Virus record (IMG/VR): IMGVR_UViG_3300035696_000033
Reading direction: 5' to 3' (one strand)
DNA: 64,000 bases
DNA from: an uncultured virus (IMG/VR IMGVR_UViG_3300035696_000033)
Lineage: Duplodnaviria; Heunggongvirae; Uroviricota; Caudoviricetes
Shown here: positions 2,961 to 24,053 of the stretch, piece after piece
How the letters are laid out: each line of letters opens with the position of its first letter
Position numbering within the stretch: the first letter of the stretch is position 1
Translations under genes and position numbers: made by a program
The notes under the pieces: model-generated
Told to the model about the DNA's origin: nothing
What the model saw: only the letters and a program-made list of their open reading frames with translations
The model's database searches: none

Positions 2961-2965
2961 CAGAC

Positions 2966-3163
2966 ATGAACACAGATGCCGTAAAGTTTCAACTCGGGCA
3001 AATGGTTTACTACAAGCCGAAGCCGGAACGGGTCGGCATTGTCAGCTGCATACATTTTTCAGAGTCGGGGGTTCGCTACACGGTAAGCTGGGACGACTTT
3101 CAAGACCGTTCCCACTATGCAATTGAACTCACTGCGGAAAAGAATTTTGCGGTCAATGAGTGA
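2966..3163 (+). CDS. Small hypothetical protein (SH3-like beta fold possible)
   Basis: KFQLGQMVYYK pattern; tight packing between neighbours. Confidence 0.6.
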   Translation: MNTDAVKFQLGQMVYYKPKPERVGIVSCIHFSESGVRYTVSWDDFQDRSHYAIELTAEKNFAVNE

Positions 3164-3714: not shown

Positions 3715-3899
3715 GCCGCCCCAAAGAAAAAATGATTCTCGAGGAAAAACTGCGAGAGATGGAGGAACACTTCAACCGGCTTTCCTACCGCAATGCCATC
3801 CGGCAGGTGTCGGTGGAAATTGAAGGACGCACGCCAGCCCACAAACATGCGCCCTGTGCGGGCCGGGATTTTTCAGCGCCCATCACCTCCTCCATTTGA
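3711..3899 (+). CDS. Small hypothetical protein
   Basis: ATGA overlap with the HD gene; coiled-coil-like N-terminus. Confidence 0.45.
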   Translation: MSRPKEKMILEEKLREMEEHFNRLSYRNAIRQVSVEIEGRTPAHKHAPCAGRDFSAPITSSI

Positions 3900-3906
3900 T
3901 GCGCCA

Positions 3907-6420
3907 ATGGACAACGAAACTGACAACGCAACCGACAAGCCGGATCAGGAATTGCTGCGGCGCATCCGCTGTGCCTGGGAAAAAGACCTGAAGTTAAGAT
4001 CGGTTGAGGCGAACAGTTTCTGGCAACTCAAGCTGTTTGGCGAGACGGAGGAGGACTTCATCCGCAAGGAGGTTGAGCGCAAGCTCTACATCCCGGAGCT
4101 TCCGAACGGTGGCGACAAGGAGCGCCGCATTGTCGAGCGCTTGAAAAAAGTCTCGCGGATGAAGGATTTCGCGGACGCGTGGCGCGCCGGCGTGATGTTG
4201 AAAAGGTGGTTGGCGGTGCTTCCGGAAGATCCGCGCAACGCCGGCCACTATTACACGCGCACGCCAATGACACCCCGCACGGACAAGGAGGATTTTGACT
4301 GGTTCCATGAACGGCTCAACGCGGCGAAGGTTGCGAGGGATTGGGACAAGAAATGGTTTTATGAACTGCTCCTCGACGGGCCGCCGAAACCGTGCTCCAA
4401 CTTTGACATCCGCTGCCTGTTCCTGTTGAACTGCGCCGACGGCGACATCCAGCGCCTGGTGCTGCTCCACAATGACGTGGGTGAGACCGCGGGGCCGGTG
4501 AACATGGACTGCGAGGCGTTCCACGCGCCGCAGAAATTCCGCAAGTGGTGTCTTGCGCGCGGCAACTTCAACTGGGGGGGCGGCGAGAAAGAGCTGCAGA
4601 AACTGCACAACGACATCGGGCGGCTTGCCGCGTGGCGCGTCGTCAACCAGGTCGTCACGCTCGGCTGGCTGCCGCTGGTTCTTGCGGGGGCGGACGGACA
4701 AAGGGCGTCCGTGCGAACCGCAAACGGCTGCGTGGCGTGCGACGGCATCTGGTTTTTTGGCGACGCGGTGCGGGCCAACGGCGTGGGGCCGGACGGCGAG
4801 CCGGTGGATGAGTGGCTACAGCCGGACGCCGACGGCATCTACTGGCACCGGATGGTTGACAAGGAAACCGGCGAGCTGGTGGACCGCGGCTATCTGCTGT
4901 CGGACACCGGGTGGGAGGGGCCGATAAAGGTGCCTTTCTACCAAAACAAGCCAATGCTTTATCCAGGCTGGCGGATCGCGGACCTGCCATTGGAACTTGC
5001 CCCGTGCCCGGAACTGAATTTCCCCGGCACACAGAAGGGGGAACAGAACAAAGAACTGGGTGTGGATGGGGAAAAAGAGCGGCTGTTGCTGTCGGTTTTC
5101 TTCCGTGAGTTTTGCCAGCACATGCTGAACGCGGTGGGCGGAGAGGAATCCAAACTGCTCATTGGCGGTTATCTGGCGTATGCGGCGGCGCCGGAGATTT
5201 ACGCGCAACACAGCCTGTTCCCCGGCCTGTGGGTGCACGGCCAGGCCAACTCCGGCAAGTCCACCATTGTGGAACTGCTCATGGAAATCTGGGGCTTCTC
5301 GCTGCCGAGCGGCCTGATGTTGAAAGGCAACCTGGTGTCGGCGGTCGGCCTGTCGCAGGCCACGGCGCAATATTCCAACCTGCCGGTATGGGCGGATGAA
5401 TACATCAATGGCGAAGTGGACGACGACAAGATGAGCGTGCTTCACGCGGGATACAACCGCCAGACGCCGGCCAAGTTCAACGCGTCCGGATTCCGAAGGA
5501 TGATGCGGACCAACTTTGTGGTGAGCGGTGAAAGCACCTCGACGAAGGCGGCGATGCGATCGCGCTTCCCCCACATCCAGATGGCGGCGACCCGCCGCAA
5601 GGGGACGCCGGATGAACAGAAGGAAAATTTCCAGTGGCTGCTGCGGCACCGGAAATATTTCCACGTGTTCGGCCGGTTTGTGATCGAGCATCGCCGCGAG
5701 TTTGTTCGTCTGGTGCAGACCACCATGGAGAGCTGGGGCCACGAGGACATTGACACGCGCCTGCGCATCATGCATGGCGTGGGCTATGCGGCGTGGATGG
5801 CGATGGTGGGCCTGCTGCAGAGCCATACCTCCGGGGAGGTTGGGATGTTCAAGCAATACCTCATCGGCCACAGCCGGCGGGCACAGGACGACGTGCAGAG
5901 CGACCACAACATCAACGTTTTTATTGAAGAGCTGGTGACGGCCGCGAAGATGGATGCGATTCCATGGACGTGTTTCAAGGTGCTGGAGAAGCACGCGCCC
6001 CATGCGCCGGGTGCGCCGGGGCAGCCGAGGTGGACGGAATATACTTTACTGATTGATCCGGACCCGACGCTTGCGTCCTTGAACATCTGGCTGACCAAAC
6101 AGCGCCAGATGCTGCCATTGAAGCGGACGGACCTGCGCGATCAATTGAGCCGGTGTGATTATTGGTATGAGCTACCAGACGATGTCAAAGGCAAAAAGCG
6201 GTATCTCATCGTCCGGTTTGGGGCGGGCAGCAGCACGACGCTGGCGTGGGGAATCAACGCCGACAAGCATCCGCTCGGCTACCGACAGGTTTCGGACGAG
6301 GAGTTTGACGCCTATCTCGCCAACAACAGTGGCGGCGACCCGCGCAAGGGCCCGCTGTTCACGCTGATTGAGTGGGTGCTGGAGGAGCAGCGCAAGGCCA
6401 GCGCAAACGAAGACTACTAA
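3907..6420 (+). CDS. Primase-associated P-loop NTPase/replicative helicase
   Basis: Walker A GQANSGKST, Walker B PVWADEY, VVSGES..MRSR sensor/arginine-finger-like segment; downstream of primase. Confidence 0.75.
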   Translation: MDNETDNATDKPDQELLRRIRCAWEKDLKLRSVEANSFWQLKLFGETEEDFIRKEVERKLYIPELPNGGDKERRIVERLKKVSRMKDFADAWRAGVMLKRWLAVLPEDPRNAGHYYTRTPMTPRTDKEDFDWFHERLNAAKVARDWDKKWFYELLLDGPPKPCSNFDIRCLFLLNCADGDIQRLVLLHNDVGETAGPVNMDCEAFHAPQKFRKWCLARGNFNWGGGEKELQKLHNDIGRLAAWRVVNQVVTLGWLPLVLAGADGQRASVRTANGCVACDGIWFFGDAVRANGVGPDGEPVDEWLQPDADGIYWHRMVDKETGELVDRGYLLSDTGWEGPIKVPFYQNKPMLYPGWRIADLPLELAPCPELNFPGTQKGEQNKELGVDGEKERLLLSVFFREFCQHMLNAVGGEESKLLIGGYLAYAAAPEIYAQHSLFPGLWVHGQANSGKSTIVELLMEIWGFSLPSGLMLKGNLVSAVGLSQATAQYSNLPVWADEYINGEVDDDKMSVLHAGYNRQTPAKFNASGFRRMMRTNFVVSGESTSTKAAMRSRFPHIQMAATRRKGTPDEQKENFQWLLRHRKYFHVFGRFVIEHRREFVRLVQTTMESWGHEDIDTRLRIMHGVGYAAWMAMVGLLQSHTSGEVGMFKQYLIGHSRRAQDDVQSDHNINVFIEELVTAAKMDAIPWTCFKVLEKHAPHAPGAPGQPRWTEYTLLIDPDPTLASLNIWLTKQRQMLPLKRTDLRDQLSRCDYWYELPDDVKGKKRYLIVRFGAGSSTTLAWGINADKHPLGYRQVSDEEFDAYLANNSGGDPRKGPLFTLIEWVLEEQRKASANEDY

Positions 6421-13214: not shown

Positions 13215-14921
13215 ATGAAAACAAAACTCGCAATCATCCTCATCGCGGCGTTCTCGGTATTAACCGGCCACGCTCAATTTCAACTGGTGGACACGACAAC
13301 GGCCCACGTCGTCGGAGGGCAGATCATCTATGGCGATCCGCTGCCAACGGCATTTGCAAAGGTGAACAGCAACTTCACTTACTGCGCCGCGCAACTCGCG
13401 TTTTTGAACACGGAATGCGCGAACATTGTCGGGCTTCAGGCAGGGCTTCAGGCAACGAACGCGGTGTTCTCAAACAACTTCGTCAGCGTCATCAACATGG
13501 TGACAAACTTGAATGGGAAATGGATTCAAGGCGGCACAATAAACAGCAACTCGCTGGACAGCGGGACGATGGCATGGCTGAACAGCCACAGCATCTCCGG
13601 CAGCGGTGGCGGCGGCGATGGTTCTGGCGAGATGGATTTTGACGGCGGGGCGATCATCAGCGATGGCAATGGAGACATTTGGGCAAATGCGATTGTTGTT
13701 CCATCCATATGGGACAGCCAAAACCTGACAGGCAGCGCCGGCCAGGTGGCCACGGCGAATGGCGACAGAACGTGGAGTTGGGAAGCGCCAAGCGGCGGGG
13801 GTGCCGCGACCATCGTCTTCACCAACACAATCACCGGGGCGCCCGGCACGATGGCCATCGTCACAAATGTTGGAAACAATGTGTCGGCAGTTCTTCAACT
13901 CACCATCCCCGCCGGCGCGCCCGGTGCGCCCGGCACAAACACTGTCACGGTCTATAACTTGAGCAACGCGTGGCTTGGTTGCCGGCTGTTACCGACCTAC
14001 ACGACCAACTATGCGATGTGGAACGCTTCGAATTTTCTCGCCCGCGTGCCGGGATTTTATAGAGGACGGGCTTCCGGCGGCGACGATGGCGGAAATCCGC
14101 CGGAGTCCATTCCGATTTCATTTGTTGGGAGCTTCACGGGCACCAACAACTGGTTCGTGATCACCAATGGCTTCCAGACGACGAACACCATTTCTGTTGC
14201 GCTCATCACCAACGGGGCTTCCATGAGAGGGGGGACCATTGTTGATCCCGGCAGCGCCACACTTTACAACGTTGACCATTGGGAACTGGTTGGTGTCACC
14301 AACTACGGGTTCGCCGAGCATTACCAGTTCGACACGCCTGTAAATCCAAATGATGCGGCGACGAAGGGTTATTGTGACGGCCTGTATGCCAACGCCTTCG
14401 ACTCCAACTTTTCCAGCTACACCAACAATGGCGTCACCTACACCGTTTATTCCTACCAAAACGCAGTGACGTTTCAGATCGCCAACCAGACGGTGAACAT
14501 TCCGCACAGCTTTGCGATTGACGGGACGGGCACGAACATCCTGTTTGGCCTCACGCTGGCCAGCATGACGAATGGCTGCACGCTGCAATACTCGACGAAT
14601 CTTGCGCAGGTCGCCGGCTGGATGACGTTCACCAACTACACCTCTACCACGAACGCGGGCGTCGTGACGTTCACAATCCCCATGAACCGGTCCCTGCCAT
14701 TGATGCTGTTTCGCGCCATCGCCAGCGCCACCAGCATCCCATCGTTTCTTGTTCCGCTTGGCGTGCCGGAGATCGCCTTTGCGACGAACACGATCACGCA
14801 TTCAACCAATTCGACCTATGGCTACGGCGCCGGCCTGATGACGTGCGACACGAATTATGTTTACGTCAGCGTGGGGACGAACGCCTGGTGTCGGCTGGCG
14901 ATCCCGACGAACACCTGGTGA
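13215..14921 (+). CDS. Fibre-like protein with Sec signal peptide
   Basis: MKTKLAIILIAAFSVLTGHA-Q leader; PVNPNDAATKGYCD and C-terminal DTNYVYVSVGTNAWCR fibre motifs; many N-x-T/S sequons. Confidence 0.65.
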   Translation: MKTKLAIILIAAFSVLTGHAQFQLVDTTTAHVVGGQIIYGDPLPTAFAKVNSNFTYCAAQLAFLNTECANIVGLQAGLQATNAVFSNNFVSVINMVTNLNGKWIQGGTINSNSLDSGTMAWLNSHSISGSGGGGDGSGEMDFDGGAIISDGNGDIWANAIVVPSIWDSQNLTGSAGQVATANGDRTWSWEAPSGGGAATIVFTNTITGAPGTMAIVTNVGNNVSAVLQLTIPAGAPGAPGTNTVTVYNLSNAWLGCRLLPTYTTNYAMWNASNFLARVPGFYRGRASGGDDGGNPPESIPISFVGSFTGTNNWFVITNGFQTTNTISVALITNGASMRGGTIVDPGSATLYNVDHWELVGVTNYGFAEHYQFDTPVNPNDAATKGYCDGLYANAFDSNFSSYTNNGVTYTVYSYQNAVTFQIANQTVNIPHSFAIDGTGTNILFGLTLASMTNGCTLQYSTNLAQVAGWMTFTNYTSTTNAGVVTFTIPMNRSLPLMLFRAIASATSIPSFLVPLGVPEIAFATNTITHSTNSTYGYGAGLMTCDTNYVYVSVGTNAWCRLAIPTNTW

Positions 14922-14989
14922 CTAGAATTTCCTAGAAATTGTGCTTGCATTTTACGGGGGATGCGCCAGAATGATTCACATATCCAAGG
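14922..14989 (+). promoter_or_regulatory. Sigma70-like promoter, class B copy 1
   Basis: TTTCCTAGAA, TTGCAT-N16-CAGAAT, then CATATCCAAGG; the same elements recur at 24790-24861. Confidence 0.5.
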
Positions 14990-15020
14990 AGCGTGGCAGC
15001 ACTGTAACCATTTGCCGCCC

Positions 15021-16319
15021 ATGTCAGACTCCAAACCGATGCGTGTCCTTGCGCTTTGTGATTCCCCCGCCGTCCGTCCCGGCACCGCCCCCACCGGGTT
15101 CGCCCGCGTCGCCCGCAACCTGTTCGCCCAATGGCCGGAGGACGTTGAGATAGACATCTGGGCGCTCCACTTCGACGGTTGGGGCTACCGCGACCTCCTT
15201 GCGGAGGGCCACCAGTGGACATTGTTCCCCGGCGGCAACCGGGACTGGAACACGCCCGCCCGGCTCAACGCCCTTTTGAAGGTATTGTCCTCCGGCCGCT
15301 ACACCCACGTCTGGATGCTGGCGGACGCGGACGCGCTGTGCGTTGGCAACGGCGAGCGGAGTTTTCCGAACCAATTGCGGGCCTGCTGCAAAAAGCACGG
15401 CATCAAATCGCTGCTTTATTTCCCGATTGACTGCGATCATCAGGAGTTTGCGTGGATGGAAATGATCAAGGCGGTGGACGCGGCCGTGACGTTCACGGAA
15501 TACGGCGCGAGCGTGGTGAGAGAAACGCTGTCGCAAAGCCTGTTCCCGATCCACGTGCTGCCGCACGGGCTGGACGCGCACTTTGTCCCGGTGGAAAATG
15601 AGGGGCAGAAGGCGGAATGCAGAAAACAAATCATCCTTGAAAGTGGAAGGCCGTTCGCCGGAGAAAAAGACTTCCTGCTGCTGAATGTGAACAAGAACGA
15701 GTGGCGCAAGGACCCGCTGCGCTCCCTTGAAATTTTGAAGGGTCTGGTGGAGCGCGGGCTGCCGGCCAAGATGGTTTTCAGGATGTCCGCGACGAGCGTC
15801 ACGGACGGAATAAACATTCCGCGGGCGGCGGCGCAGCTCGGCCTGGAGGATGGCGTGCACTACGTCCTGCTCGACGCCGTGCCGGAACAACACCTGCCCA
15901 AGCTTTACCAGGCGTGCGACCTGTATATCACCACCACGCTGGGCGAAGGCTGGGGGCTTGGCATCACGGAGGCGCTCGGATGCGGGGTGCCGGTGGCGAT
16001 GCCAATGCACACGAGCTGTGGTGAAATTGGCGAAAACATTTTGACAGAGACAGAGAAGGCCGCGGGGGGGCCGCGCACCTTCAGTCCACTTGCATGGGTT
16101 GCTCCAATCGTTTGGCTGGAGAAAGAAGGGGGACAAGTCTGTGGCAATGACACGCGGCTGCGCTGTCGCGTGGACCTGTTGAAGGCGATCCGGGATGTGG
16201 AGAAGTTCTGGCGCGCCGCATCCGGAGCCCCGTGCGCGCCGGTTCGCCTGCCGCCGGAAATCCGCGAGTGGCTTTCGTGGGAGCGCATCGCCAAGGAATT
16301 TTTGAAACTGATGAAATAA
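15021..16319 (+). CDS. GT-B (GT4-like) glycosyltransferase
   Basis: DSP..TGFARV N-terminus, LPHGLD, NKNEWRK, YQACDLYITTTLGEGWGLGITEALGCGVP. Confidence 0.9.
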   Translation: MSDSKPMRVLALCDSPAVRPGTAPTGFARVARNLFAQWPEDVEIDIWALHFDGWGYRDLLAEGHQWTLFPGGNRDWNTPARLNALLKVLSSGRYTHVWMLADADALCVGNGERSFPNQLRACCKKHGIKSLLYFPIDCDHQEFAWMEMIKAVDAAVTFTEYGASVVRETLSQSLFPIHVLPHGLDAHFVPVENEGQKAECRKQIILESGRPFAGEKDFLLLNVNKNEWRKDPLRSLEILKGLVERGLPAKMVFRMSATSVTDGINIPRAAAQLGLEDGVHYVLLDAVPEQHLPKLYQACDLYITTTLGEGWGLGITEALGCGVPVAMPMHTSCGEIGENILTETEKAAGGPRTFSPLAWVAPIVWLEKEGGQVCGNDTRLRCRVDLLKAIRDVEKFWRAASGAPCAPVRLPPEIREWLSWERIAKEFLKLMK

Positions 16320-16337
16320 CATGAACCCGATAATAAC

Positions 16338-17132
16338 ATGAACCCAATTCCCGTCCTCGGCATCCCGCACTACAACCGGCCCGACCTGCTGCTGCGCTGC
16401 ATCCGGAGCATTGATCACCCCGTCCGCAACCTGGTTATCGTGGCAAATGGCCTGCCGTCCGAAACGCCGCCGGATTTTATCGTGCGATCATCCGCTTACG
16501 ATGGCGTGGAAAACGTGAGGGTCATTAATCACCCGAACTCCGGCGTTGCGGGCTCGTGGAATGAAATCATCAAACTGTTCCCCGCGCCGTGGTGGATGAT
16601 CGCCAACAACGACATTGAGTTCGCGCCGGGGGATCTGGGGAAAATGGCGACAGCCGCCGAGCATAATCTGGAACGGCGGTGTTTGCGTTTTACCCTCGTT
16701 TCAAACCCGGACAGTGAGGTCGAGCCTGCGGGCGCGATCTACGGCAACCACGGAGCGAGCTGGTTCGCCATCACCGCGCACGGCGTGGAGAAGGTGGGAC
16801 TGTTCGATGAAAACATCTACCCCGCCTACCTGGAAGACTGCGACTGGAGTTATCGCGCCGACCTGATGGGTGTCCGGCGCCTTACGCTGGTGGGGGATGT
16901 TCGCGCGAAACACGGCGATGACAAGTGCCTTGGATCTTCAACCATCATGTCGGATCCGGCACTGCGGGAGAAGAACCGGCGCACGCACGGCGGGAACTTT
17001 TATTACTACCGGAGCAAGTGGGGCGGCGTCAACGGGCAGGAAGTCTTCAGGACGCCTTTCGACGATCCCGGATGGCCGGTGTGGGCGTGGAAATTCGATC
17101 CGGCGTTCCGGGCAAAACAGCAATGGTGCTAA
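16338..17132 (+). CDS. GT-A (GT2-like) glycosyltransferase
   Basis: IPHYNRPDLL, N.GVAGSWN, NNDIEF, VGLFDENIYPAYLEDCD. Confidence 0.9.
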   Translation: MNPIPVLGIPHYNRPDLLLRCIRSIDHPVRNLVIVANGLPSETPPDFIVRSSAYDGVENVRVINHPNSGVAGSWNEIIKLFPAPWWMIANNDIEFAPGDLGKMATAAEHNLERRCLRFTLVSNPDSEVEPAGAIYGNHGASWFAITAHGVEKVGLFDENIYPAYLEDCDWSYRADLMGVRRLTLVGDVRAKHGDDKCLGSSTIMSDPALREKNRRTHGGNFYYYRSKWGGVNGQEVFRTPFDDPGWPVWAWKFDPAFRAKQQWC

Positions 17133-17136
17133 AACC

Positions 17137-17928
17137 ATGATCCCGCGCATCAAAATAGTCTGCTTCTTTTACAACGAGGAAACGCTGGCCGAATTTTTTA
17201 TCCGGCATTACCGCTGGGCCGACCGGATTCACGCCGTTTTAAGCCGGTCAACCGACGGGACGCGGGCGGTTTTATCCCGCGCCCCGAATGTCGTCATCGA
17301 GGACTTTGAGTTTCCCGGCGGCCGCATGGACGATTTTTTGAAGAGGGACAAGGTGAACAGCCTCCTGCTGGAGCCGTCGGAGTTTGACTGGATCATCATT
17401 GTGGACGCCGACGAATTCATCTGGCCGTCCGTGCGCGCCGATGAATTGAGCGCGCGCGCCGCCGGCCTGACGGTCCGGGAACACCTGGCGTCCGTGCCGG
17501 CGAACGACACGGTGCTGCGCGCCCGGATGTGGAATGTTTTCCGGCACGCGACGGAAGGGGATCTGGACCCGAACAATGAGCCGGTGGTTTTGCAGCGCCG
17601 CCACGGCGACGTCGACCTAAACTCGACCGGCAATGCGCAGTATCAAAAGCCGATTGTGCTGCGCACAAACCTTGGGTTTCAGCTTGTGCCCGGCAACCAC
17701 GGGTTGCTGCCGAACCCCAACACGCGGCTATCGTTCCGCACGTTCGACGGCGCTCACTGGCAGAATGCGGATCCCTCGTTTTGCATCACGCGGCGCTGCC
17801 GCGACCGGCGCGACCGGCAAAGCGCGGCGAACCTGAAATTCGGCCTTGGCAGCCAGCACCATCATGTCACCGAGGCGGAGGCGCTGGAGTTGTGCCGCGC
17901 GCATTTGAACGACCCGCAATGTTTTTAG
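17137..17928 (+). CDS. GT2-like glycosyltransferase
   Basis: FYNEETL..FIRHY, STDGT, WIIIVDADEF. Confidence 0.85.
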   Translation: MIPRIKIVCFFYNEETLAEFFIRHYRWADRIHAVLSRSTDGTRAVLSRAPNVVIEDFEFPGGRMDDFLKRDKVNSLLLEPSEFDWIIIVDADEFIWPSVRADELSARAAGLTVREHLASVPANDTVLRARMWNVFRHATEGDLDPNNEPVVLQRRHGDVDLNSTGNAQYQKPIVLRTNLGFQLVPGNHGLLPNPNTRLSFRTFDGAHWQNADPSFCITRRCRDRRDRQSAANLKFGLGSQHHHVTEAEALELCRAHLNDPQCF

Positions 17929-18191
17929 GACAAAAAGCTCCCAGACGCCACGGTGACGCCTGCTGAGCGCAACCAAAAGCCACCCGCGAACTGCGACTAT
18001 GAATAACCCAAACCTTCTCGGATTACTGACAGCGCCAACGCGGGTTGGCTCCGGCGACTGCATATGGGAATGAACCTGCAACCTCGAAACGACGAAGAAG
18101 GTGAAACACTTCGTTGCACGTTTCGGCGCTGATGACATCGCCATCATTTACGCCCTTGAACTGCGGGACGAAACCACAACTCGTAAAATTT

Positions 18192-18656
18192 ATGGAACAA
18201 AAAATAACTCAAGATGGAGCGCGGGGCGAACCGCAGGTTCGCTCCGGCGCGGTGTTGGGCTGCTGCGTGGAAATCCAAAAACTGCTCGGAAAAGAAAAAG
18301 ACTTCCACGAGCAAACACGCGGCAGTAGCGGGCGTGGTGTGAAATGGGAAGAAGGCTTCATCGAAGGAATAAAGCACTGCCTGCTAGTGGTCTCAATGCA
18401 AAATAACAATCTAAAAACGCAGCAACCGCCCGCGTCAGCGGCGGGTGCAGCGGCTTATTTGGCGCTGACCGACGCGGAGAAAATCCAAAAGACAATCGAA
18501 CTTTTGGAATATCTGCATGCCGAATGCCTCGTGCCCGACATGGCGCATGATGCCGTCGGAACGTGCCGCATCTGCCGACTCCTAAAAGAACTGAAAGCAC
18601 CCGAACGCTTTGAGCAGCCCAACGCTCGTGCTGACCTGCGCGGCGACAAACCGTGA
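18192..18656 (+). CDS. Cassette-borne hypothetical protein
   Basis: Payload bounded by GTTGGGCTGCT (18254) and AGCAGCCCAAC (18623). Confidence 0.6.
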   Translation: MEQKITQDGARGEPQVRSGAVLGCCVEIQKLLGKEKDFHEQTRGSSGRGVKWEEGFIEGIKHCLLVVSMQNNNLKTQQPPASAAGAAAYLALTDAEKIQKTIELLEYLHAECLVPDMAHDAVGTCRICRLLKELKAPERFEQPNARADLRGDKP

Positions 18657-18926
18657 ACTCACTATTGCATCAAGACCAAACTGCCGGGCGTATCCCGTCA
18701 GGCTTCCGAAGGTTGCGATTCAGCCGGCGCACGGCGCGGTCGGCGCGAGAAGAAAGCTTTCGAGGCTGGCTGGATAGCTGGTGCCGAACGCATGGGGGAC
18801 TGCCTCAACGGCGGATACCGTCCTCAAACCGTGAAACAATCTGGAGCCTCAACGAAATAAACTGCGCGTCCAACCCGCATTGGCTCCATGCGGTAGTTGG
18901 GCGGCACAATCGAAAGACAAACAACA

Positions 18927-19334
18927 ATGAAAGAAAATGGTGAACCAAACTACGCGGGCTGGATCGTCGCATCAATCGTGGCAATCGGCGTCGTAATCTT
19001 CGGCGCAATGTGGGCGTATCCGCAATACAACATCTATGCGAGCCGCGCACTCGGCCAAGCAATGCTGGCACACGCGCAGTCCGCAAAAGAAGTGGCTGTG
19101 GCCGAAGCGAAGGCCAAAATGGAATCGGCGGAACTGCTGGCGCAAGCGGAAGTAATCCGCGCTGGTGGCGTCGCAAAGGCAAATCAGATAATCGGCGAAT
19201 CGCTGAAAAATAATGAGGCATATCTTCGCTACCTCTGGATTAACGACGTGGCCGCGCAAGGCACAGACAAAACCGTGGTGTATGTGCCAACCGAAGCCAA
19301 CCTGCCAATCCTTGAAGCCACCCGAAACAAATAA
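18927..19334 (+). CDS. Cassette-borne membrane protein (SPFH/Band-7-like coiled coil)
   Basis: One TM helix then an AEA-rich helix ending NEAYLRYLWI..VYVPTEANLPILEA; bounded by a 13-bp IR (18896/19374). Confidence 0.7.
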   Translation: MKENGEPNYAGWIVASIVAIGVVIFGAMWAYPQYNIYASRALGQAMLAHAQSAKEVAVAEAKAKMESAELLAQAEVIRAGGVAKANQIIGESLKNNEAYLRYLWINDVAAQGTDKTVVYVPTEANLPILEATRNK

Positions 19335-19388
19335 AACTCACGCGGCACAGTGCGCGTGCGCTGTGCCGCCCAACGAAAGCAAAAACCT

Positions 19389-20006
19389 ATGAAATTATCA
19401 GGACATCAACTAGACGGATTCAATGCAGCATTACGCGCAGGTGACGACGCGGGAGCACACCAAGAATTACAAATCGCGTGCGCCAAAGCTGATGGCGCAG
19501 CTCCGGTTCGCGTGCAGCCGGTTGTTCTGCCGCATCGTTGCCCGCACGGAAATCTCCCATACGGGAACTGGGCGAACACCGTCCCACCAATGACACGCTG
19601 GCAAATATCGTGTCCATGCTGCATGTGGTATGAGCAGGCTGAAAACGAAACGTGCGCAGTGAAGATGTGGAATGAATACCTGCGGCAGAACGCGGGAGCC
19701 AAGCTGCGTGCTCCCAGCGACACTGATAAAACTGAAGGCGTAATCACGTCGCCTCCAGCAACTTGTTCGGCGAAAACGTATCCTCACAATCCAAGCCACC
19801 CAATCGGAACATGCACTAAATGCGGCGGTGAGATGGTCTATAACGTGCCACGCATGGGGCCAAATGGCGGCTTCGTCCACAAAGCAACAGGACGCCTAGT
19901 GTGTGGAACTGGCCGATGCGATGCGTGTGGTGGAGACCGCGACAATGCAGACTGCCCTGAATTGGCAGAAATCATGCGCCGCTATTCGCCGAACGCTACC
20001 CGATGA
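19389..20006 (+). CDS. Chimeric ORF reading through attC; two Cys-rich Zn-ribbon modules (first is Lar-like)
   Basis: CPHG..ISCPCC..AVKMWN and CTKCGG..CDACGG modules on separate cassettes joined in frame. Confidence 0.55.
   Translation: MKLSGHQLDGFNAALRAGDDAGAHQELQIACAKADGAAPVRVQPVVLPHRCPHGNLPYGNWANTVPPMTRWQISCPCCMWYEQAENETCAVKMWNEYLRQNAGAKLRAPSDTDKTEGVITSPPATCSAKTYPHNPSHPIGTCTKCGGEMVYNVPRMGPNGGFVHKATGRLVCGTGRCDACGGDRDNADCPELAEIMRRYSPNATR
19685..19771 (-). repeat. attC site
   Basis: GCAGAAC...GCCTCCAGCAACTT-GTTCGGC. Confidence 0.7.
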
Positions 20007-20087
20007 GCCACGCCGCACCAATAACCGTGAACCGCGAAGCGGAACTGAACGCGACAATAGGCGTTGGCTCCGGCGGGTTTGTTAGGT
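19988..20087 (-). repeat. attC site
   Basis: GCCGAAC..TGAGCCACGCC...GGCGTTGGCTCCGGCGGGTTT-GTTAGGT. Confidence 0.85.
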
Positions 20088-20392
20088 GTCCGTCCACGAC
20101 ACTCGCACTTCCCGGTCTGGAATCAGAAAGCGTCCGGCTCGACGACATCATCCTGACGCCGCTCGACGTGGCGCGTGACGTGGTGAAACACTTCGCGCCG
20201 TCTGGCCGCATCCTCGACCCGTGCCGTGGAAATGGTGCGTTCGCCGATCTGATGCCAGGATGTGAATGGTGCGAAATCCGGCAAGGCCGCGACTTCTACG
20301 CATGGCGCGAGCCGGTGGACTGGATCGTTAGCAACCTGCCGAAGGAAGTCCGCGAATACCGAATACGGCGAAAGGAACGAAATGAAAAGTGA
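20003..20392 (+). pseudogene. Truncated DNA adenine methyltransferase-like cassette
   Basis: LTPLDVA, ILDPCRGNGAF (SAM-binding), GRDFY, VDWIVSN then LP instead of NPP(Y/F/W), followed by an early end; own attC end missing. Confidence 0.65.
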
Positions 20393-20696
20393 TGTTGAAC
20401 GTTCTGGGACACCGGCTGTTGCGGTGCAGCGCTTTGTTAGCCGCCCGCACCCGTGGAAATCCCAATTTTCCAACCAGCAAAAACTCAAAGAAGCCAGGCG
20501 GTGCGCAAATCTGCGCCGGATGAAAAAGTATCGAGATGACGGCAAAGAATACTTCCGGCTCACCGAAAAGACATGGCACGAAACGCACCCAAACGGCGCT
20601 GGAACAAACAACCCACGATTTACAGAGCGCGCCATAAAAGCAAATGCTGCCAAGCGTCAGGCGACTAACGATGGCGCTGAGGCGCGTGACCTATGA
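20382..20696 (+). CDS. Cassette-borne basic hypothetical protein
   Basis: AAAGGA before ATG; payload bounded by GTTAGCCGC (20436) and GCGACTAAC (20669). Confidence 0.55.
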   Translation: MKSDVERSGTPAVAVQRFVSRPHPWKSQFSNQQKLKEARRCANLRRMKKYRDDGKEYFRLTEKTWHETHPNGAGTNNPRFTERAIKANAAKRQATNDGAEARDL

Positions 20697-20944
20697 CAAC
20701 CGCAAACGAAAACTCTCCCGGCAAACCTGAAGGCGTAATCACGTCAGCTTCGGCGCGGGTGTCCGTGCGCCTAAAGGCATCCGACTGGGAAACCCTTGTC
20801 AACTTCGTGCAGGGTGACATAAGCAACATGGACATCGCCGACCCAAACCGCACCGACACCGAGAAAATCCTAAACGTAATCCGGCTCGCTCTGGCTAAAG
20901 CGCCGAACGAAAAAGCTGAGCGGCCCGCGACCAAGACGCCATGA
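20693..20944 (+). CDS. Cassette-borne hypothetical protein
   Basis: ATGA-coupled at both ends inside attC sites. Confidence 0.55.
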   Translation: MTTANENSPGKPEGVITSASARVSVRLKASDWETLVNFVQGDISNMDIADPNRTDTEKILNVIRLALAKAPNEKAERPATKTP

Positions 20945-20992
20945 ATAACACTGAAAACGCCAACGCGGGTTCGCTCCGGCGACTTGTTGTGC
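20902..20992 (-). repeat. attC site
   Basis: GCCGAAC GAAAAAGCTGAGCGGCCCGCG...CGCGGGTTCGCTCCGGCGACTT GTTGTGC. Confidence 0.85.
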
Positions 20993-21195
20993 CGCTGGTC
21001 GAAATTCTCGAAAAAGACATCGCCCGGCTGAAAACGCATCTCAAAATGTGGGAGGCCACAGGTAACCCGATGGTCATGCCAAGCGACGGCCAGTGTCGAA
21101 TACTCATAGACGATTTAGAAATAGTCGTCGCCGCGCTGAAGCGGCACAACGCGGGAGCTGACGCACCCGCGACCAACGATAAACGAACTCTATGA
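20941..21195 (+). CDS. Cassette-borne hypothetical protein
   Basis: Starts inside attC 20902-20992 and stops inside attC 21144-21252. Confidence 0.6.
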   Translation: MNNTENANAGSLRRLVVPLVEILEKDIARLKTHLKMWEATGNPMVMPSDGQCRILIDDLEIVVAALKRHNAGADAPATNDKRTL

Positions 21196-21252
21196 AACCC
21201 TCTCGAACAACTGACAGCGCCAACGCGGGTTGCGTCCGGCGACTTGTTAGGC
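21144..21252 (-). repeat. attC site
   Basis: GCACAAC..GCTGACGCACCCGCG...CGCGGGTTGCGTCCGGCGACTT GTTAGGC. Confidence 0.85.
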
Positions 21253-21311
21253 CACTGGTCGAAATAACAAAAAGTCTGGTCCGGCAAAAAACGTAATGAA
21301 ATCAACATAAA

Positions 21312-21530
21312 ATGAGCAAACAACCATCAAAACAGGCCAAATCCGGTCCGGGTATCAAAACCCGCAAACAAAAGCAAAAACGCGACGAACTAACATCGGC
21401 ATGTATCGGACTGCTAGTTGGCAACTTCCATTGCGATGCCTGCCACCTCAAGCGACGAATCTTCGATGAACTGTTCAAGCGAAAAATAATGGACGTAAAT
21501 CAGCACGGCCAAATGGTCGAAGTGGCCTAA
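21312..21530 (+). CDS. Cassette-borne hypothetical protein
   Basis: Stop codon is the TAA of GCCTAAC; CDAC motif. Confidence 0.55.
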   Translation: MSKQPSKQAKSGPGIKTRKQKQKRDELTSACIGLLVGNFHCDACHLKRRIFDELFKRKIMDVNQHGQMVEVA

Positions 21531-21711
21531 CGCCCGCATGAGCGAACCCCCAACCCGCGATGCCCAATAACCAACAACTCTACGCGCAAACCTGCGGTGG
21601 CAATGGGGGTTCGCTCCATGACGGCACGCCAGTCATGGGCGCGTGCAAGAAGCATCAAGACGAACTCGCAACAAAACTCAAATGGCAAATACAGCCACAA
21701 ACGCCGATTTG

Positions 21712-21819
21712 GCACAACGACCGGAGCTGAGACGCCCCGGAACTACGATATGAAAAAACCAAAATCCAAAGCAAAAACTGCAAGGCGTAATCCGGGTCGT
21801 CTCCAGCGACTTGTTAGGC
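21712..21819 (-). repeat. attC site
   Basis: GCACAAC..GCTGAGACGCCCCGGA...TCCGGGTCGTCTCCAGCGACTT GTTAGGC. Confidence 0.85.
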
Positions 21820-22094
21820 GACCCGTGCGTGAATACACCGTTGAAATGTGGCGCACGATGGGAGTGATGCGCCATAAATGTGAGGCGGCATCGCGGGACG
21901 AAGCCATCGAAATAATGCTGACTCATCTGCCGCCTGACTACCGAATAGTGCTCGTGACTACCGCAGCACAAGCCAAACGGAAACGCGGCCACACATATAG
22001 TGGGCGGTGCGTGGTCTGCAAAAAACACATCTATGATGAAACCGGATGCGAACATCCAAAGCCTCACCACTATGCCTGCGGTGAAGTCGCCTAA
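21750..22094 (+). CDS. Cassette-borne Cys/His-rich hypothetical protein
   Basis: ATG inside attC; CVVCKKH..C motif; stop in GCCTAAC. Confidence 0.55.
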   Translation: MKKPKSKAKTARRNPGRLQRLVRRPVREYTVEMWRTMGVMRHKCEAASRDEAIEIMLTHLPPDYRIVLVTTAAQAKRKRGHTYSGRCVVCKKHIYDETGCEHPKPHHYACGEVA

Positions 22095-22187
22095 CGTATG
22101 AAGCTGAGCCACCGCCGACTCTGGACGCTGACCGCGATAGCGGAACTGACCGCGCTAACGGCGGTTGGCTCCGGCGACTTGTTAGGC
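22089..22187 (-). repeat. attC site
   Basis: GCCTAAC..GCTGAGCCACCGCCG...CGGCGGTTGGCTCCGGCGACTT GTTAGGC. Confidence 0.9.
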
Positions 22188-22214
22188 AGCAACTCGTGAA
22201 CTGACATAAAAAAT

Positions 22215-22460
22215 ATGATAACTGAACAAACAACCTATCAGCCCGAAATCTGGTCTGTCAAAAAGGACGACATCTACGCCGCAATCACGGCGATAGAATC
22301 CGGCATCTGCTACGCGCAAGAATGTCTCGCCACTCACGACCAATCTCTCGGACGAACCACCCGCAAAAACAAAAGCTCTGCGGAGCGCATGGAATCTGAC
22401 CTGCGGCAAATGTCGCTCGCTCATGCCGCGCTACGCTTGCTGCCTAACGAAAAAAGCTGA
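22215..22460 (+). CDS. Cassette-borne hypothetical protein
   Basis: Ends LLPNEKS*, stop is the TGA of the attC GCTGAG box. Confidence 0.6.
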   Translation: MITEQTTYQPEIWSVKKDDIYAAITAIESGICYAQECLATHDQSLGRTTRKNKSSAERMESDLRQMSLAHAALRLLPNEKS

Positions 22461-22552
22461 GCCACCGGCAACCCGTGGCAAACGAACTTATGAAAACCCC
22501 TGCGAATAAAAAGAAAACTGCAATGCCGGTTGGCTCCGGCGCTTGGTTAGGC
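22442..22552 (-). repeat. attC site
   Basis: GCCTAAC GAAAAAAGCTGAGCCACCGGCA...TGCCGGTTGGCTCCGGCGCTTG GTTAGGC. Confidence 0.9.
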
Positions 22553-22771
22553 TGCGTCGAACCAAGACTGACTCCAATCTTCACAGAACTCCGCAAGCTC
22601 CACCACGAATGCGAGGCGGCAAATGAAGGCCGAATCGCTTGGGAAATCTCGCAAGGCATCCGCGCCTTGGATGAAGCTGTATATCTCGCCAAGCTGTATA
22701 TCAGCGGCAAGCCACTACCAACGCTGGCGTCAATGCGGGGCATACTCAAGCGGCCTAACGAAAAAAGCTGA
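22490..22771 (+). CDS. Cassette-borne hypothetical protein
   Basis: ATG within attC; ends KRPNEKS* in the next attC. Confidence 0.55.
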   Translation: MKTPANKKKTAMPVGSGAWLGCVEPRLTPIFTELRKLHHECEAANEGRIAWEISQGIRALDEAVYLAKLYISGKPLPTLASMRGILKRPNEKS

Positions 22772-22851
22772 GCCACCGCCGACCTGCGACGTGAACCGCG
22801 ATAGCGGAACTGCAAGCGCCAACGGCGGTTGGCTCCGGCGACTTGTTAGGC
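22753..22851 (-). repeat. attC site
   Basis: GCCTAAC GAAAAAAGCTGAGCCACCGCCG...CGGCGGTTGGCTCCGGCGACTT GTTAGGC; close to the 22089-22187 copy. Confidence 0.9.
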
Positions 22852-22879
22852 GTCTGAAACGGAAAACTGAAATAAAAAT

Positions 22880-23092
22880 ATGGCATATCAAAAGAAAGCT
22901 CCAATGAAGCGCGAAATCTTTTTCTCGCAACGAATGGACATGGCTCGCCGCGCCGAAGCGTGGTGCGTCGAACGTGGCGCAGCACTCTCATCTGGCAACA
23001 TCGTGACGGCTCTTGTCAGCATGGGAATCATCAAAAAATATACGGCGGCAAAGACGCCTAACATTGTAATAGGCAACCAATCCGCGAAATGA
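22880..23092 (+). CDS. Hypothetical protein of the attI-proximal cassette
   Basis: Payload bounded by GTTAGGCGTCT (22845) and AGACGCCTAAC (23062). Confidence 0.55.
   Translation: MAYQKKAPMKREIFFSQRMDMARRAEAWCVERGAALSSGNIVTALVSMGIIKKYTAAKTPNIVIGNQSAK
23056..23074 (-). other. attI-like recombination site
   Basis: - strand GCCTATT-ACAAT-GTTAGGC resembles the attI1 core CCCTAAA-ACAAA-GTTRRRY and terminates the array. Confidence 0.65.
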
Positions 23093-23403
23093 AAGACGCA
23101 AGCTATTGGCAGAGAAGGAAATCCGCAAGGCAGCGTTGGAGTTTCAATGCTTGTCGGAAGCGTGAACGGAACAGGGTTGAGCGTGCCAACGCACCATTGC
23201 CGGACGAACGAATCCACCACGCTTCCAAGCCGCGCCGATCTCGCCCTGATTTGAAGGTGATTCTTGAACGGAGGGACGGGATGCGGATTCAGTTCTCGTT
23301 GCATAATTTTTACGGAAAACTTGTCGGCCAAACCGTAAACATGAGTCCGAAACAGTTTGGCCGTCGGCTTGGAGAAATTTTCAACCTTTGGTGCATGGCA
23401 TGA
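23089..23403 (+). CDS. Basic hypothetical protein
   Basis: ATGA-coupled on both sides. Confidence 0.55.
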   Translation: MKDASYWQRRKSARQRWSFNACRKRERNRVERANAPLPDERIHHASKPRRSRPDLKVILERRDGMRIQFSLHNFYGKLVGQTVNMSPKQFGRRLGEIFNLWCMA

Positions 23404-24053
23404 AAATCAGCGCATTAATTCCAAGCCGAGGAAACCCGAAAGAATTGCGGGACACAATATCGAACCTGTTTTCCACGGCACGGAGCCCAGAATTGCTGGA
23501 GGTGGTTGTGCGGTTGGATGAAGACGACCCGACATTTCTGGACTACGAAAGATGCTTCCGTCCGGGTGTGCACTGGATCATGGGTCCGCGACTGGGATAT
23601 GCGCGGATTCACGAGTATTACGAGGAGTGTTACAAGCTGTCCATCGGCGACCTGATCCTGGCTTACAACGACGACGTGGAAATGATGACGACCGGATGGG
23701 ACGAGGCCTACCGCACGGCGCTGGCCCCGGTGAAGTTTGGAGTGGCATCGGCGGCGGTGGACGAGGGCAACGGCACGAATTACGCCTGGGCGATGCCGAT
23801 GGTCAAGCGCGAGTTGTGTGAGCGGATTGGCCGGTTCTGCGCGGGGGTGGAAACCTGCGACCGGATATTTGACGCCTACGCGCGGTTAAGCGGCCGCGGC
23901 GCAACGGCCCGAGTGAAGATGATCCACCGGTGGCATCCGCCGGCACCGGGCGGCGAGCGCGATAAAATCTACAACCACGCGACAAGCCACTGGGGGGAGA
24001 TGACGGCAAAGTGGGATGCGTCCGCGCGGGAAATGATGGAGATGACGAAGTGA
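23400..24053 (+). CDS. GT2-like glycosyltransferase
   Basis: MKISALIPSRG, VRLDEDD, GDLILAYNDD. Confidence 0.85.
   Translation: MKISALIPSRGNPKELRDTISNLFSTARSPELLEVVVRLDEDDPTFLDYERCFRPGVHWIMGPRLGYARIHEYYEECYKLSIGDLILAYNDDVEMMTTGWDEAYRTALAPVKFGVASAAVDEGNGTNYAWAMPMVKRELCERIGRFCAGVETCDRIFDAYARLSGRGATARVKMIHRWHPPAPGGERDKIYNHATSHWGEMTAKWDASAREMMEMTK

Follow-up and report, generated by a model that had tools for sequence, protein, structure and literature searches.

The window analysed here, the whole 64,000-nucleotide stretch of DNA from an uncultured virus (IMG/VR record IMGVR_UViG_3300035696_000033), carries phage genes for a tape measure protein, a collagen-like tail fibre, a BppU baseplate domain, a DNA polymerase exonuclease and a primase, and every gene inferred in it lies on the + strand. 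In the early/accessory region of this tailed phage genome, positions 17966-23062 are an integron cassette array without an integrase (CALIN). An earlier note, made from the letters alone, had placed such an array inside a phage genome, and the phage genes named above agree with it. The sites were scored with R1, a covariance model whose 10 input attC sites all came from bacterial MAG arrays (Verrucomicrobiae arrays beside integron integrases). Because the MAG loci were first located by a window-derived pattern, the independence of R1 from the window is incomplete, while the presence of IntI next to those loci does not depend on the pattern. The features are as follows.

16870..17928, +, left-flank glycosyltransferase gene, backbone (Pfam Glyco_tranf_2_4, E 3.7e-10)
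17966..18070, +, terminal attC, the array's far end in the canonical direction (alignment; partial R1 match 17978-18051, 37 bits, E 1.2e-7)
18205..18260, +, short degenerate attC-like site with GTTGGGC at its end (repeat family D2, 61%; no R1 match)
18617..18902, +, AAC box GCCCAAC, then a decayed attC (repeat D4 at 18870-18887, 83%; box pairs; no R1 match)
18927..19334, +, gene for a small membrane-anchored protein (phrog_11227, library label 'protease'; PHROG E 2.4e-45)
19368..19530, +, degenerate attC, GCCCAAC ... GTTCTGC (repeat D1 at 19484-19533, 60%; box pairs of 13 and 11 nt)
19685..19771, +, attC (R1 23.1 bits, E 8e-4)
19988..20087, +, attC of the 99-nt type (R1 42.7 bits, E 3e-9)
20003..20392, +, 3'-truncated DNA methyltransferase gene with its start within an attC loop (phrog_799, E 1.6e-12)
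20390..20442, +, 3' half of a third attC subtype (sequence type of the attC of MAG locus L187; GTTAGCC box at 20436)
20663..20770, +, degenerate attC (R1 10.2 bits, not significant; repeat D11, 84% to 19728-19759)
20902..20992, +, attC (R1 66.3 bits, E 1e-15)
21144..21252, +, attC of the 108-110-nt type, ATG in loop (R1 69.1 bits, E 1.7e-16)
21525..21625, +, attC that has lost its GTT box (partial R1 match 21539-21618, 19.8 bits, E 0.007)
21712..21819, +, attC (R1 55.0 bits, E 1.3e-12)
21750..22094, +, cassette gene without homologues found (composition log-ratio +6.8 bits)
22089..22187, +, attC that differs little from the 99-nt repeat found in Verrucomicrobiae chromosomal integrons (R1 104.4 bits)
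22215..22460, +, cassette gene, 81 aa, no assigned function (composition log-ratio +19.0 bits; antisense ORF -2.6)
22442..22552, +, attC (R1 82.7 bits)
22490..22771, +, cassette gene, 93 aa, ATG in attC loop (composition log-ratio +15.8 bits; antisense ORF -14.9)
22753..22851, +, attC, best copy of the host-type 99-nt repeat (R1 119.1 bits, E 2.7e-30)
22880..23092, +, cassette gene, 70 aa (ORF list; composition log-ratio +16.4 bits)
23056..23062, +, last AAC box, GCCTAA/C with the slash at the crossover, no attC body behind (11-nt pairing with 22845-22855)
23388..24053, +, right-flank glycosyltransferase-like gene, backbone (phrog_14945, E 6.6e-7)

In the terminal attC the AAC box (GCGCAAC) and L box are intact and the GTT box is lost. 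The GTT box of the site at 18205..18260 pairs with 18613-18623 over 11 nt, the decayed attC that follows is represented by its 3' half (~18862-18902, ending in GTTGGGC), and the remnant at 20390..20442 has lost its 5' half in a deletion that also took the 3' end of the methyltransferase gene. About five left-half sites are degenerate or truncated and an ORF of 205 aa (19389-20006) reads through two of them, 19368..19530 included, which is consistent with decay or domestication; the left half of the array (17966-20770) is decaying and probably no longer mobile. At the opposite end, the box at 23056..23062 is the attI-side junction between array and phage backbone, and junctions of the same form precede intI in MAGs and in the phage contig G009.

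For the small membrane-anchored protein gene, 17 of the 18 differences listed against a 96%-identical contig of another study fall on one codon phase. The gene at 21750..22094 starts at an ATG within the loop of its own attC and stops at the TAA of the next GCCTAA/C box; a protein search with its product returned the window's own product alone. The gene at 22880..23092 runs 30 nt beyond the end of the array, where it overlaps the following start codon. In the phage arrays that were examined, the cassette genes that can be named are mostly of DNA-modification or anti-restriction types. No IntI was detected in the window by tblastn with MAG IntI (best E 1.4) and no PF00589 in a Pfam search of 47 large + strand ORFs, as the earlier note had supposed for the window. 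The exact product of one cassette ORF is also on record on a 72,599-nt contig, so up to ~8.6 kb of the phage may fall outside the window and the absence of an integrase applies to the window only.

attC sites and recombination footprints

The array holds 10 strong sites supported by R1, or ~15 when remnants are counted. Searching all 64 kb, R1 placed its 10 sites on the + strand between 17978 and 22851, with nothing significant outside the array region (best 13.8 bits, E 0.3) and at most 15.9 bits on the minus strands of the same sites. The eight palindromes previously described as complete attC-like sites were matched end to end at exactly the coordinates given for them, and the proposed check of both strands with an attC covariance model, run here with R1, matched the repeats on the + strand only.

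The sites share an R box of 7 bp, a spacer that stays unpaired and an L box in which two bases are extrahelical. Counted from the 3' end, these two bases occupy positions 16 and 23, with 6 bp between them, on the arm opposite the AAC triplet; this matches the layout of the canonical attC as described in PMC5027507. In an alignment of the 10 sites that was fitted to the model, and so somewhat favours structure, 92% of cells are paired and compensatory changes occur in 10 of 22 pairs (9 of 15 in the L-box helix). The observed covariation score was reached by 0 of 500 shuffles, and slid controls pair in 24-41% of cells.

At the payload ends, 9 of the 12 adjacent box pairs show 10-13 nt of perfect, cassette-specific complementarity, against none of the 156 non-adjacent pairings (maximum 8 nt). 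The claim that these ends are private to each cassette is thereby upheld and, together with the R1 matches, so is the reading of the repeats as integron attC sites and of the units between them as cassettes. Two pairs described as carrying one mismatch are indeed of this form: for 20436/20669 the perfect pairing covers 5 nt, or 9 if one mismatch is allowed, and for 22546/22759 the figures are 7 and 9. Moreover, the two boxes within one attC are mismatched in 5 of 8 sites, which is the expectation for chimeric R boxes. These footprints show that the array arose through IntI-type recombination at the RYYYAA/C box.

Bacterial integrons of the same family and gene polarity

The window-derived pattern matched at least 179 stretches in bacterial genomes. 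Among the 46 distinct contigs listed, 31 bear Verrucomicrobia-type labels by hand count, 6 are labelled Bifidobacteriaceae and 9 bear other labels, and the largest arrays among the matches listed (9-45 matches per locus) lie on contigs labelled Verrucomicrobiae. Inspection of three MAGs revealed a TIGR02249 integron integrase beside all six arrays examined (307-413 bits; curated cut-off 265), so an intI, which the earlier note had suggested seeking in the predicted host, is present in MAGs of the probable host group. Integrons have been noted in Verrucomicrobia by Cury et al. 2016 (PMC4889954). The host of this phage is probably a Verrucomicrobia bacterium, an assignment made solely from attC likeness and the depositors' taxon labels.

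The chromosomal integrons of the Verrucomicrobiae MAGs consist of IntI, attI and long arrays of 99-110-nt attC. The window sites belong to the same attC family, with 22089-22187 and 22753-22851 near-identical to the chromosomal repeat, and have the same boxes, spacer, extrahelical bases and crossover box. However, the phage array lacks an integrase and a recognisable attI in the window, mixes several attC subtypes where each Verrucomicrobiae array is homogeneous, and has its genes on the bottom strand, whereas host cassette genes are mostly on the top strand.

This polarity departs from the earlier note, which read the + strand as the top one and put the crossover at G/TT in the right-hand boxes. 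Three lines of evidence contradict that assignment: the side on which IntI lies in the MAGs, the arm that carries the extrahelical bases (compared with PMC5027507) and the boundaries of a duplication within a MAG array. For this reason, the + strand is the attC bottom strand, crossover occurs at RYYYAA/C of the left-hand boxes, and the phage genes have the opposite orientation to those of canonical cassettes. Each gene thus follows its own attC, often starting in the attC loop, and genes end at or just past the next AAC box, whose conserved sequence gives stops in two of the three frames. PHROG-annotated ORFs in phage arrays lie on the pattern (bottom) strand in 20 of 20 cases (2/2 in the window, 11/11 and 7/7 in other phages), whereas 6 of 7 host cassette ORFs annotated by Pfam lie on the other (top) strand. 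Amino-acid composition in the window speaks for all 13 ORFs on the + strand and against 16 of the 17 on the minus strand.

Related phage arrays and published cases

The attC family occurs in 13 other viral contigs with 2-13 sites each. G004, with 13 sites, and G005, with 7, are complete genomes that have terminal repeats and phage hallmark genes, and a search of both for TIGR02249-type integrases, the integron-type family only, found no IntI. The fragment G009 has 3 sites beside an IntI-like gene (263.6 bits, just below the 265-bit cut-off) whose sequence is 33-38% identical to MAG IntIs and aligns with them across the KYPNA...W.W..FP stretch. Relatives of the window's left-flank glycosyltransferase were found at 46 viral loci, and none of these had attC sites.

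Cassette content is wholly different among 14 phage arrays save one shared payload. The methyltransferase payload of the window is common to the unrelated phage G009, where the gene is full-length (90% nt identity over 263 nt, from the R box onward). The attC body to the left of this payload is wholly different between window and G009, and likewise between two MAGs, a pattern not expected if cassettes are simply transferred under bottom-strand geometry. Single cassettes ending at boxes, 18867-19368 and 22548-22759, occur in contigs of other studies (X3); in the runs X1-X3, contig-level data blind to circle junctions and rare deletions, no recombination event was seen. No close relative with another cassette order was found, the sole near relative being the same phage.

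Phage CALINs as a kind were published by Qi et al. 2023 (Front Microbiol, PMC9892861), who described 17 with 2-3 predicted attC sites each; 5 of 6 tested phage attC sites recombined with IntI1. The present array is likewise an integrase-less attC cluster with cassettes in a phage genome, and DNA methyltransferase cassettes recur in both. It differs in size (10 model-supported sites, with 13 in one related case, against 2-3 in the Fig. 2 legend and 11 Table S1 rows of that paper), in that the sites belong to the presumed host's chromosomal integron family, and in bottom-strand gene polarity, of which the passages drawn on from Qi et al. make no mention. Complete integrons are also documented in temperate phages such as Vibrio anguillarum phage Va_90-11-286_p16 (PMC9892861 Table 1). 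G009 resembles these in having an IntI-like gene directly beside attC sites, but its protein is diverged and below cut-off and its cassette gene runs in the same direction as intI; the window itself, unlike them, lacks IntI.

Alternative explanations and a proposed mechanism

We consider it likely that the locus is, as a whole, a CALIN of host-type attC sites built by IntI-type recombination, with genes on the bottom strand, where an integrase acting in trans would allow cassettes to be swapped. The strongest competing hypothesis is that the array, or a seed of it, was captured once from an integron and now holds ordinary phage genes that no integrase recombines. The degenerate or truncated sites (~5 of ~15), the ORF reading across two of them, a window without an integrase and the lack of a variant array among relatives found are all in keeping with such a relic. 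However, seven sites at 42-119 bits have boxes and extrahelical bases intact, the private complementarity of 9 of the 12 units would decay if unused, and the 14 phage arrays differ fully in their cassettes apart from the one payload. Moreover, the genes run on the strand opposite to that of host cassettes, which a simple, single capture of a host array would not account for, and we regard a frozen relic as unlikely.

A second hypothesis is that the attC sites are phage attachment sites at which host IntI integrates the whole circular genome, giving lysogeny without a phage integrase and shuffling as a side effect. In its favour, the arrays of G004 and G005 occur in genomes without a TIGR02249-type integrase, the best phage sites differ little from the host repeat, and a Vibrio prophage has its excision points in two attC sites (PMC9892861). 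We nevertheless hold this to be very unlikely, since no phage-like insert lies between attC sites in the MAG arrays inspected (the long intervals contain transposase ORFs, not phage genes), a single site would be enough and 10-15 gene cassettes are left unexplained, and G004 and G005 may carry an integrase outside the integron-type family that was searched.

T4-type phages contain promoter-stem-loop 'mobile regulatory cassettes' that have been proposed to move by homologous recombination and are not known to have any link to integrases. They share with the window small accessory genes in a hyperplastic phage region with repeated hairpin-forming elements between them, and differ in that the window repeats are bona fide attC with recombination footprints. 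Could the repeats here be mainly regulatory or RNA-structure elements (terminators or processing sites), with modules moved by homologous recombination? The sites are transcribed within + strand ORFs, the conserved 5' arm gives stop codons and the loop gives ATG, and attC are thought to hold weak terminators (PMC9892861). Yet cassette-specific complementary ends and chimeric R boxes are impossible via homologous recombination between repeats, the same sites adjoin IntI in bacteria, and the frame in which ORFs cross the sites varies, so that their conservation is not explained by a common peptide. Regulatory elements as the sole explanation are already disfavoured, and we rate this hypothesis as highly improbable.

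An assembly chimera, in which a phage contig was joined through repeats to a bacterial cassette array, is barely credible: although the summed depth of the 99-nt repeat is ~10,000 against ~10 for the phage (X1, possible source sample) and graph contigs break at each attC, payload contig depth is 9.5-10.8 against 12.3 and 12.8 for the flanks (X1, possible source run), phage genes flank both sides on the same strand, array coding is on the phage strand throughout, the same joins occur as error-free array pieces in a second study (X2), a 61-kb metagenome contig that possibly derives from the same data matches 21 kb, array included, at 99.995% identity, and the layout recurs in complete terminal-repeat phage genomes.

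How, then, would a host-type CALIN without an integrase be reshuffled? Each unit consists of a short gene and an attC of the Verrucomicrobiae chromosomal integron family, with Verrucomicrobiae as likely hosts, and the bottom strand, which integron integrases recombine, is the phage coding strand. We infer that during infection an integrase supplied in trans, by the host or by a co-infecting phage such as G009, may fold and recombine the sites. Shuffling by host integrase is plausible, as suggested indirectly by an attC family that is the host's, by IntI beside six of six MAG arrays and by chimeric R boxes. Beyond the published phage CALINs, what is new is a far larger array, an attC family of host chromosomes, recurrence in 13 further viral contigs and reversed gene polarity. 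Cassettes would in this way be lost, gained and exchanged, and the locus would serve the phage as a swap-shop for small accessory genes.

Repeat family and phage context of the array

The window is a segment of a tailed-phage genome in which every inferred gene lies on the + strand, with the following landmarks.

Features of the phage genome around the array
311-1159, +: DNA polymerase exonuclease subunit
3793-6420, +: primase-like protein
14961-17928, +: three glycosyltransferases
38990-39064: tRNA-Met (CAT)
in the window, +: dNMP phosphatase
in the window, +: BppU-type baseplate protein
in the window, +: collagen-like tail fibre
in the window, +: tape measure protein, 1434 aa

A patatin-like phospholipase gene lies among the phage structural genes (42722-43714; Pfam E 3.5e-23), and a cluster of glycosyltransferase genes (14961-17928 and 23388-24053) encloses the array. 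Relatives of the flanking glycosyltransferase at 46 viral and 37 metagenome loci were at most 60% identical and, a single site in locus L271 excepted, lacked attC sites; no viral relative was found for the right-flank protein. In metagenome contig L286, homologues of both array-flanking genes are adjacent in reverse order at 35-37% identity, and this locus was rejected as an empty site because its gene order runs the other way and the identity is too weak.

Imperfect palindromes, 87-111 nt long, split positions 17966-23062 into approximately 14-15 short units; every palindrome consists, in order, of RYYYAAC, spacer, L'' arm, variable loop, L' arm, spacer and GTTRRRY. Both core boxes are present in eight full sites, in which AAC and GTT are invariant, and the GTT box is missing from two sites. 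A 25-nt degenerate pattern taken from the 3' arm of the repeats and scanned against one genome per prokaryote species matched at least 179 stretches. Among the matches listed, a hand count of the 46 distinct contigs gave 31 labelled Verrucomicrobia-type by their depositors, 6 labelled Bifidobacteriaceae (co-assembly bins) and 9 with other labels, and the biggest arrays (9-45 matches per locus) all lay on Verrucomicrobiae-labelled contigs. The six Bifidobacteriaceae-labelled carriers are short co-assembly-bin contigs that may be mis-binned. The NCBIfam integron-integrase model TIGR02249 scored 307-413 bits (cut-off 265) directly adjoining 6/6 arrays examined in three metagenome-assembled genomes (MAGs), and exceeded the cut-off in none of 14 control genomes.

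A covariance model (R1) was trained only on 10 attC sites from MAG loci, themselves located with the window-derived pattern, and was scanned with filters off across the entire window, where it gave 10 matches with E no higher than 0.007, every one of them on the + strand within 17978-22851; the best score outside the array was 13.8 bits (E 0.3). The 99-nt repeat of a MAG (G001) has near-identical counterparts at 22753-22851 and 22089-22187, and the sites at 21144, 21712, 22442 and 20902 represent a 108-110-nt subtype found in MAGs as well. DNA folding predicts an imperfect hairpin with an R box, an unpaired central spacer, an L box and a variable terminal structure. Compensatory changes occur in 9/15 L-box pairs with 92% of cells paired, and the observed covariation score was reached by none of 500 shuffles. 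Two bases, a C and a T, are extrahelical in the 3' arm of the + strand; counted manually in the alignment from the 3' end, they occupy positions 16 and 23 and are separated by 6 bp. According to Nivina et al. 2016 (PMC5027507), the two or three extrahelical bases lie across from the AAC triplet on the bottom strand, occupy positions 16 and 23/24 and flank a stem of 6 bp. The window sites have C at position 16 in place of the usual G. At gathering thresholds, the tRNA was the sole Rfam match in the window, and no family was detected in the array region.

Judged by their sequence, the window repeats are integron attC sites, putative as to recombination by IntI, and the array is a CALIN with 10 attC sites within 4.9 kb and no IntI in the 64 kb examined. 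The earlier note had proposed at least eight complete attC-like palindromes in the absence of an integrase; R1 recovered the eight it listed with identical endpoints, no IntI was found, and the fold with extrahelical bases on which that note had made its claim depend is present, with two bulged bases, on the + strand.

Recombination footprints, polarity and gene orientation

What do the ends of the units record? In 9/12 units, the GTT box and its extension after an attC pair perfectly over 10-13 nt with the extension and AAC box at the far end of the payload, and none of 156 non-adjacent box pairings reaches 10 nt, which bears out the earlier observation of payload-specific complementary ends. 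Moreover, the two boxes within one site are mismatched (5-6 of 7 positions paired) in 5/8 full sites. Every attC of an array is chimeric, one of its boxes being derived from the neighbouring cassette. Homologous recombination or a common regulatory role of the repeats cannot give private end complementarity together with mismatched boxes. The array therefore carries footprints of past integron-integrase recombination.

The motif RYYYAAC...GTTRRRY reads alike on both strands of an attC, so the complementary ends leave the recombined strand unfixed. The earlier note had taken the + strand as the top strand with a crossover at G/TT, an assignment that did not hold up on three grounds. First, in 6/6 MAG arrays and in the phage contig G009, intI is located past the GTT end and on the pattern strand (the strand carrying the 25-nt pattern, + in the window). 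The longest open frame is opposite the pattern strand in 37/44 intervals of MAG locus L002 and 22/25 of L030, as are 6/7 Pfam-annotated MAG cassette ORFs (one insertion-sequence transposase excluded). Given the side of intI and the strand of the cassette ORFs, the MAGs have the regular integron layout only when the pattern strand is read as the bottom strand. Second, the extrahelical C and T sit on the 3' arm, where PMC5027507 places such bases, so the + strand is the bottom strand. Third, the L002 array contains a 0.9-kb duplication whose two boundaries coincide exactly with AAC boxes and whose left side bears a distinctive attC body. These observations together identify the window + strand as the attC bottom strand.

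The crossover is GCCTAA/C, and in + coordinates a cassette consists of an attC followed by its payload; the attI-side end of the array is 23062 and the far end is 17966. The junction at 23062, GCCTAA/C-ATTGTAATA, matches in form those that precede intI in MAGs and G009, and shares a few bases with the junction of the Verrucomicrobiae integron L192. A complete integron (intI, attI and Pc) differs from what the window holds: intI was not found, and the right flank beyond 23062 shows no further likeness to any MAG attI-intI region compared.

Two + strand ORFs of the array match PHROGs, phrog_11227 (E 2e-45) and a methyltransferase fragment (E 2e-12), and none of the 15 minus-strand ORFs does. An amino-acid composition log-ratio trained on the phage's own backbone genes is positive in 13/13 + strand ORFs and negative in 16/17 on the minus strand. 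Among 12 + strand ORFs, 8 start inside the loop of the upstream attC. The ORFs at 21312-21530 and 21750-22094 stop at the TAA of the following GCCTAA/C box, others stop 12-45 nt farther on, mostly within the next attC, and the reading frames across attC sites differ. This layout departs from the canonical cassette, in which a promoterless top-strand gene is followed by its attC, whereas the window genes lie on the bottom strand after their attC. Three further measures were neutral: the strands of the array could not be told apart by GC at the codon positions; phage and MAG payloads alike show positive AT skew along the pattern strand, so that this skew is uninformative as to the coding strand; and codon-phase clustering of variants fits one frame on each strand, so codon phase alone does not decide the coding strand. 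A protein search with the ORF at 21750-22094 retrieved only itself.

A 205-aa ORF at 19389-20006 runs through two decayed attC sites and joins apparently separate Cys-rich modules of three former cassettes. The first part of the unit after attC 21144-21252 repeats the beginning of the preceding cassette at 86% identity (21194-21271 versus 20941-21195, repeat D2) but breaks off after 25 codons, and looks like a partial duplication or truncated paralogue. Separately, the Verrucomicrobiae integrons L187 and L192 each have a bottom-strand ORF in the cassette adjoining attI, of which one resembles the DUF4326 match in locus L054 and the other encodes a small Cys-rich protein; the start lies inside the attC loop in L187 and just past the attC in L192, a layout as in the phage arrays. 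On the attC bottom strand, L002 also holds a DDE transposase ORF (Pfam; 14298-15722) within its cassette array, and a 2.9-kb interval of L030 has an open frame as long (476 aa).

Cassette sharing and related arrays in other phages

In X1, a possible source run of the window DNA, payload contigs have depths of 9.5-10.8 compared with 12.3 and 12.8 for the flanks, and the depth of the 99-nt repeat sums to approximately 10,000. A second study (X2) yielded error-free pieces of the array at low depth, and a 61-kb metagenome contig that may share the window's source data is 99.995% identical over 21 kb. Contig joints were rejected as a sign of excision in the window phage, since they stem from the attC repeats of other organisms, and stretches lacking coverage in X2-X4 do not count as evidence either.

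The truncated methyltransferase payload at 20079-20340 is 90% identical to a full-length gene in G009, and the likeness begins at the GTT box. A lake-water study (X3) contains single-cassette contigs that end at boxes, corresponding to 18867-19368 (19 differences) and 22548-22759 (16 differences). When all window ORFs of at least 45 aa from both strands were compared by tblastn with approximately 1.5 Mb of MAG and viral loci, the matches comprised attC-encoded segments and the methyltransferase payload, which is the only payload found in common among the phage arrays. None of the phage payloads occurs in the sampled MAG arrays. The attC body on the left of this payload is wholly different in the window and G009, and in two MAGs that share a payload both flanking attC bodies differ too. 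For this reason, attC bodies look array-specific, as if homogenised or replaced.

R1 identified 2-13 sites in each of 13 further viral contigs, and the flanks fetched from these contigs showed no relatedness to the window phage.

Sites matched by R1 in other viral contigs
G004: 13 sites
L289: 11 sites
G005: 7 sites
L300: 7 sites
L297: 7 sites
L184: 5 sites
L176: 5 sites
L177: 4 sites
L293: 4 sites
L179 (G009): 3 sites
L181: 2 sites
L290: 2 sites
L303: 2 sites

The two sites of L290 lie on opposite strands, 2944-3041(-) and 5713-5825(+). Both G004 (71.6 kb) and G005 (58.7 kb) represent complete, terminal-repeat genomes that carry phage hallmark genes, and neither has a match to TIGR02249. G009, a fragment of 30.7 kb, has genes for the major head, portal and terminase proteins. 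An IntI-like tyrosine recombinase gene (L250:8444-9421) lies 300 nt beyond the last of its three attC sites, with a TIGR02249 score of 263.6 bits (cut-off 265), PF00589 and an N-terminal SAM-like domain. Its product is 33-38% identical to MAG IntIs and aligns over the KYPNA...W.W..FP stretch, which we take to be the IntI-specific insertion. This gene and the cassette methyltransferase of G009 lie on one strand, and a small protein with a DNA polymerase beta thumb domain comes next.

ORFs of at least 60 aa in the other phage arrays (101 on the same strand, 117 on the opposite strand) were compared with PHROGs (E up to 1e-4), and all 18 that matched lie on the pattern strand. Including the two from the window, the count is 20/20, or 17/17 if three possible backbone genes, located in a 4.6-kb stretch of L176 that lacks attC sites, are left out. 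The functions that could be named in these phage cassettes are five DNA methyltransferases or fragments, a Mom-like DNA modification protein, a Lar-like restriction-alleviation protein, a PAPS reductase and a radical SAM protein.

Phage cassettes and a possible link to host integron machinery

Integrons are gene-capture devices of bacteria. For the array, the action of an integrase in trans is inferred as the most likely mechanism. How does such an array compare with those already described in phages? Qi et al. 2023 screened 10,705 phage genomes and reported 3 complete integrons, one In0 and 17 CALINs, with 2-3 predicted sites per CALIN in the main-text examples and 11 rows of Table S1 (PMC9892861). 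According to that paper, five methyltransferase cassettes occur in phages and IntI1 recombines 5/6 phage sites tested. Integrons in Verrucomicrobia are noted in Cury et al. 2016 (PMC4889954). Phage CALINs are therefore a kind already known, and against the examples and table rows of PMC9892861 the window array is a much stronger and structurally deviant case. A literature search covering journals other than subscription titles found no account of long phage arrays, of an attC family matched between phage and host, or of bottom-strand coding in phage cassettes.

A wider reading, which taken in all its parts we consider tentative and rather unlikely, is that Verrucomicrobiae phages run a mirror-image cassette economy on the integron machinery of their hosts. 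They would draw on a separate pool of cassettes with genes on the attC bottom strand, and phage read-through transcription would both express these genes and bare the recombinogenic strand as single-stranded DNA. Capture at a bacterial attI would place such genes antisense to the integron promoter. Counter-defence genes (methyltransferases, Mom-like, Lar-like) would be over-represented in the pool, as a mirror of the defence cassettes of bacterial chromosomal integrons, and in some phages, such as G009, a divergent integron integrase of their own would drive exchange.

Long arrays of the presumed host's own attC site family can reside in phages, and this trait recurs across many unrelated phage genomes, with cassettes that are built reversed and of which the nameable ones are mostly DNA-modification or anti-restriction genes. 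If inactive, the arrays would still illustrate the flow of cassettes into phage genomes more clearly than any earlier case. If active, they would provide a natural test of the interplay of strand choice, transcription and cassette orientation as well as a host-linking marker for uncultured phages, and one recombination system would serve both sides of the phage-host arms race.
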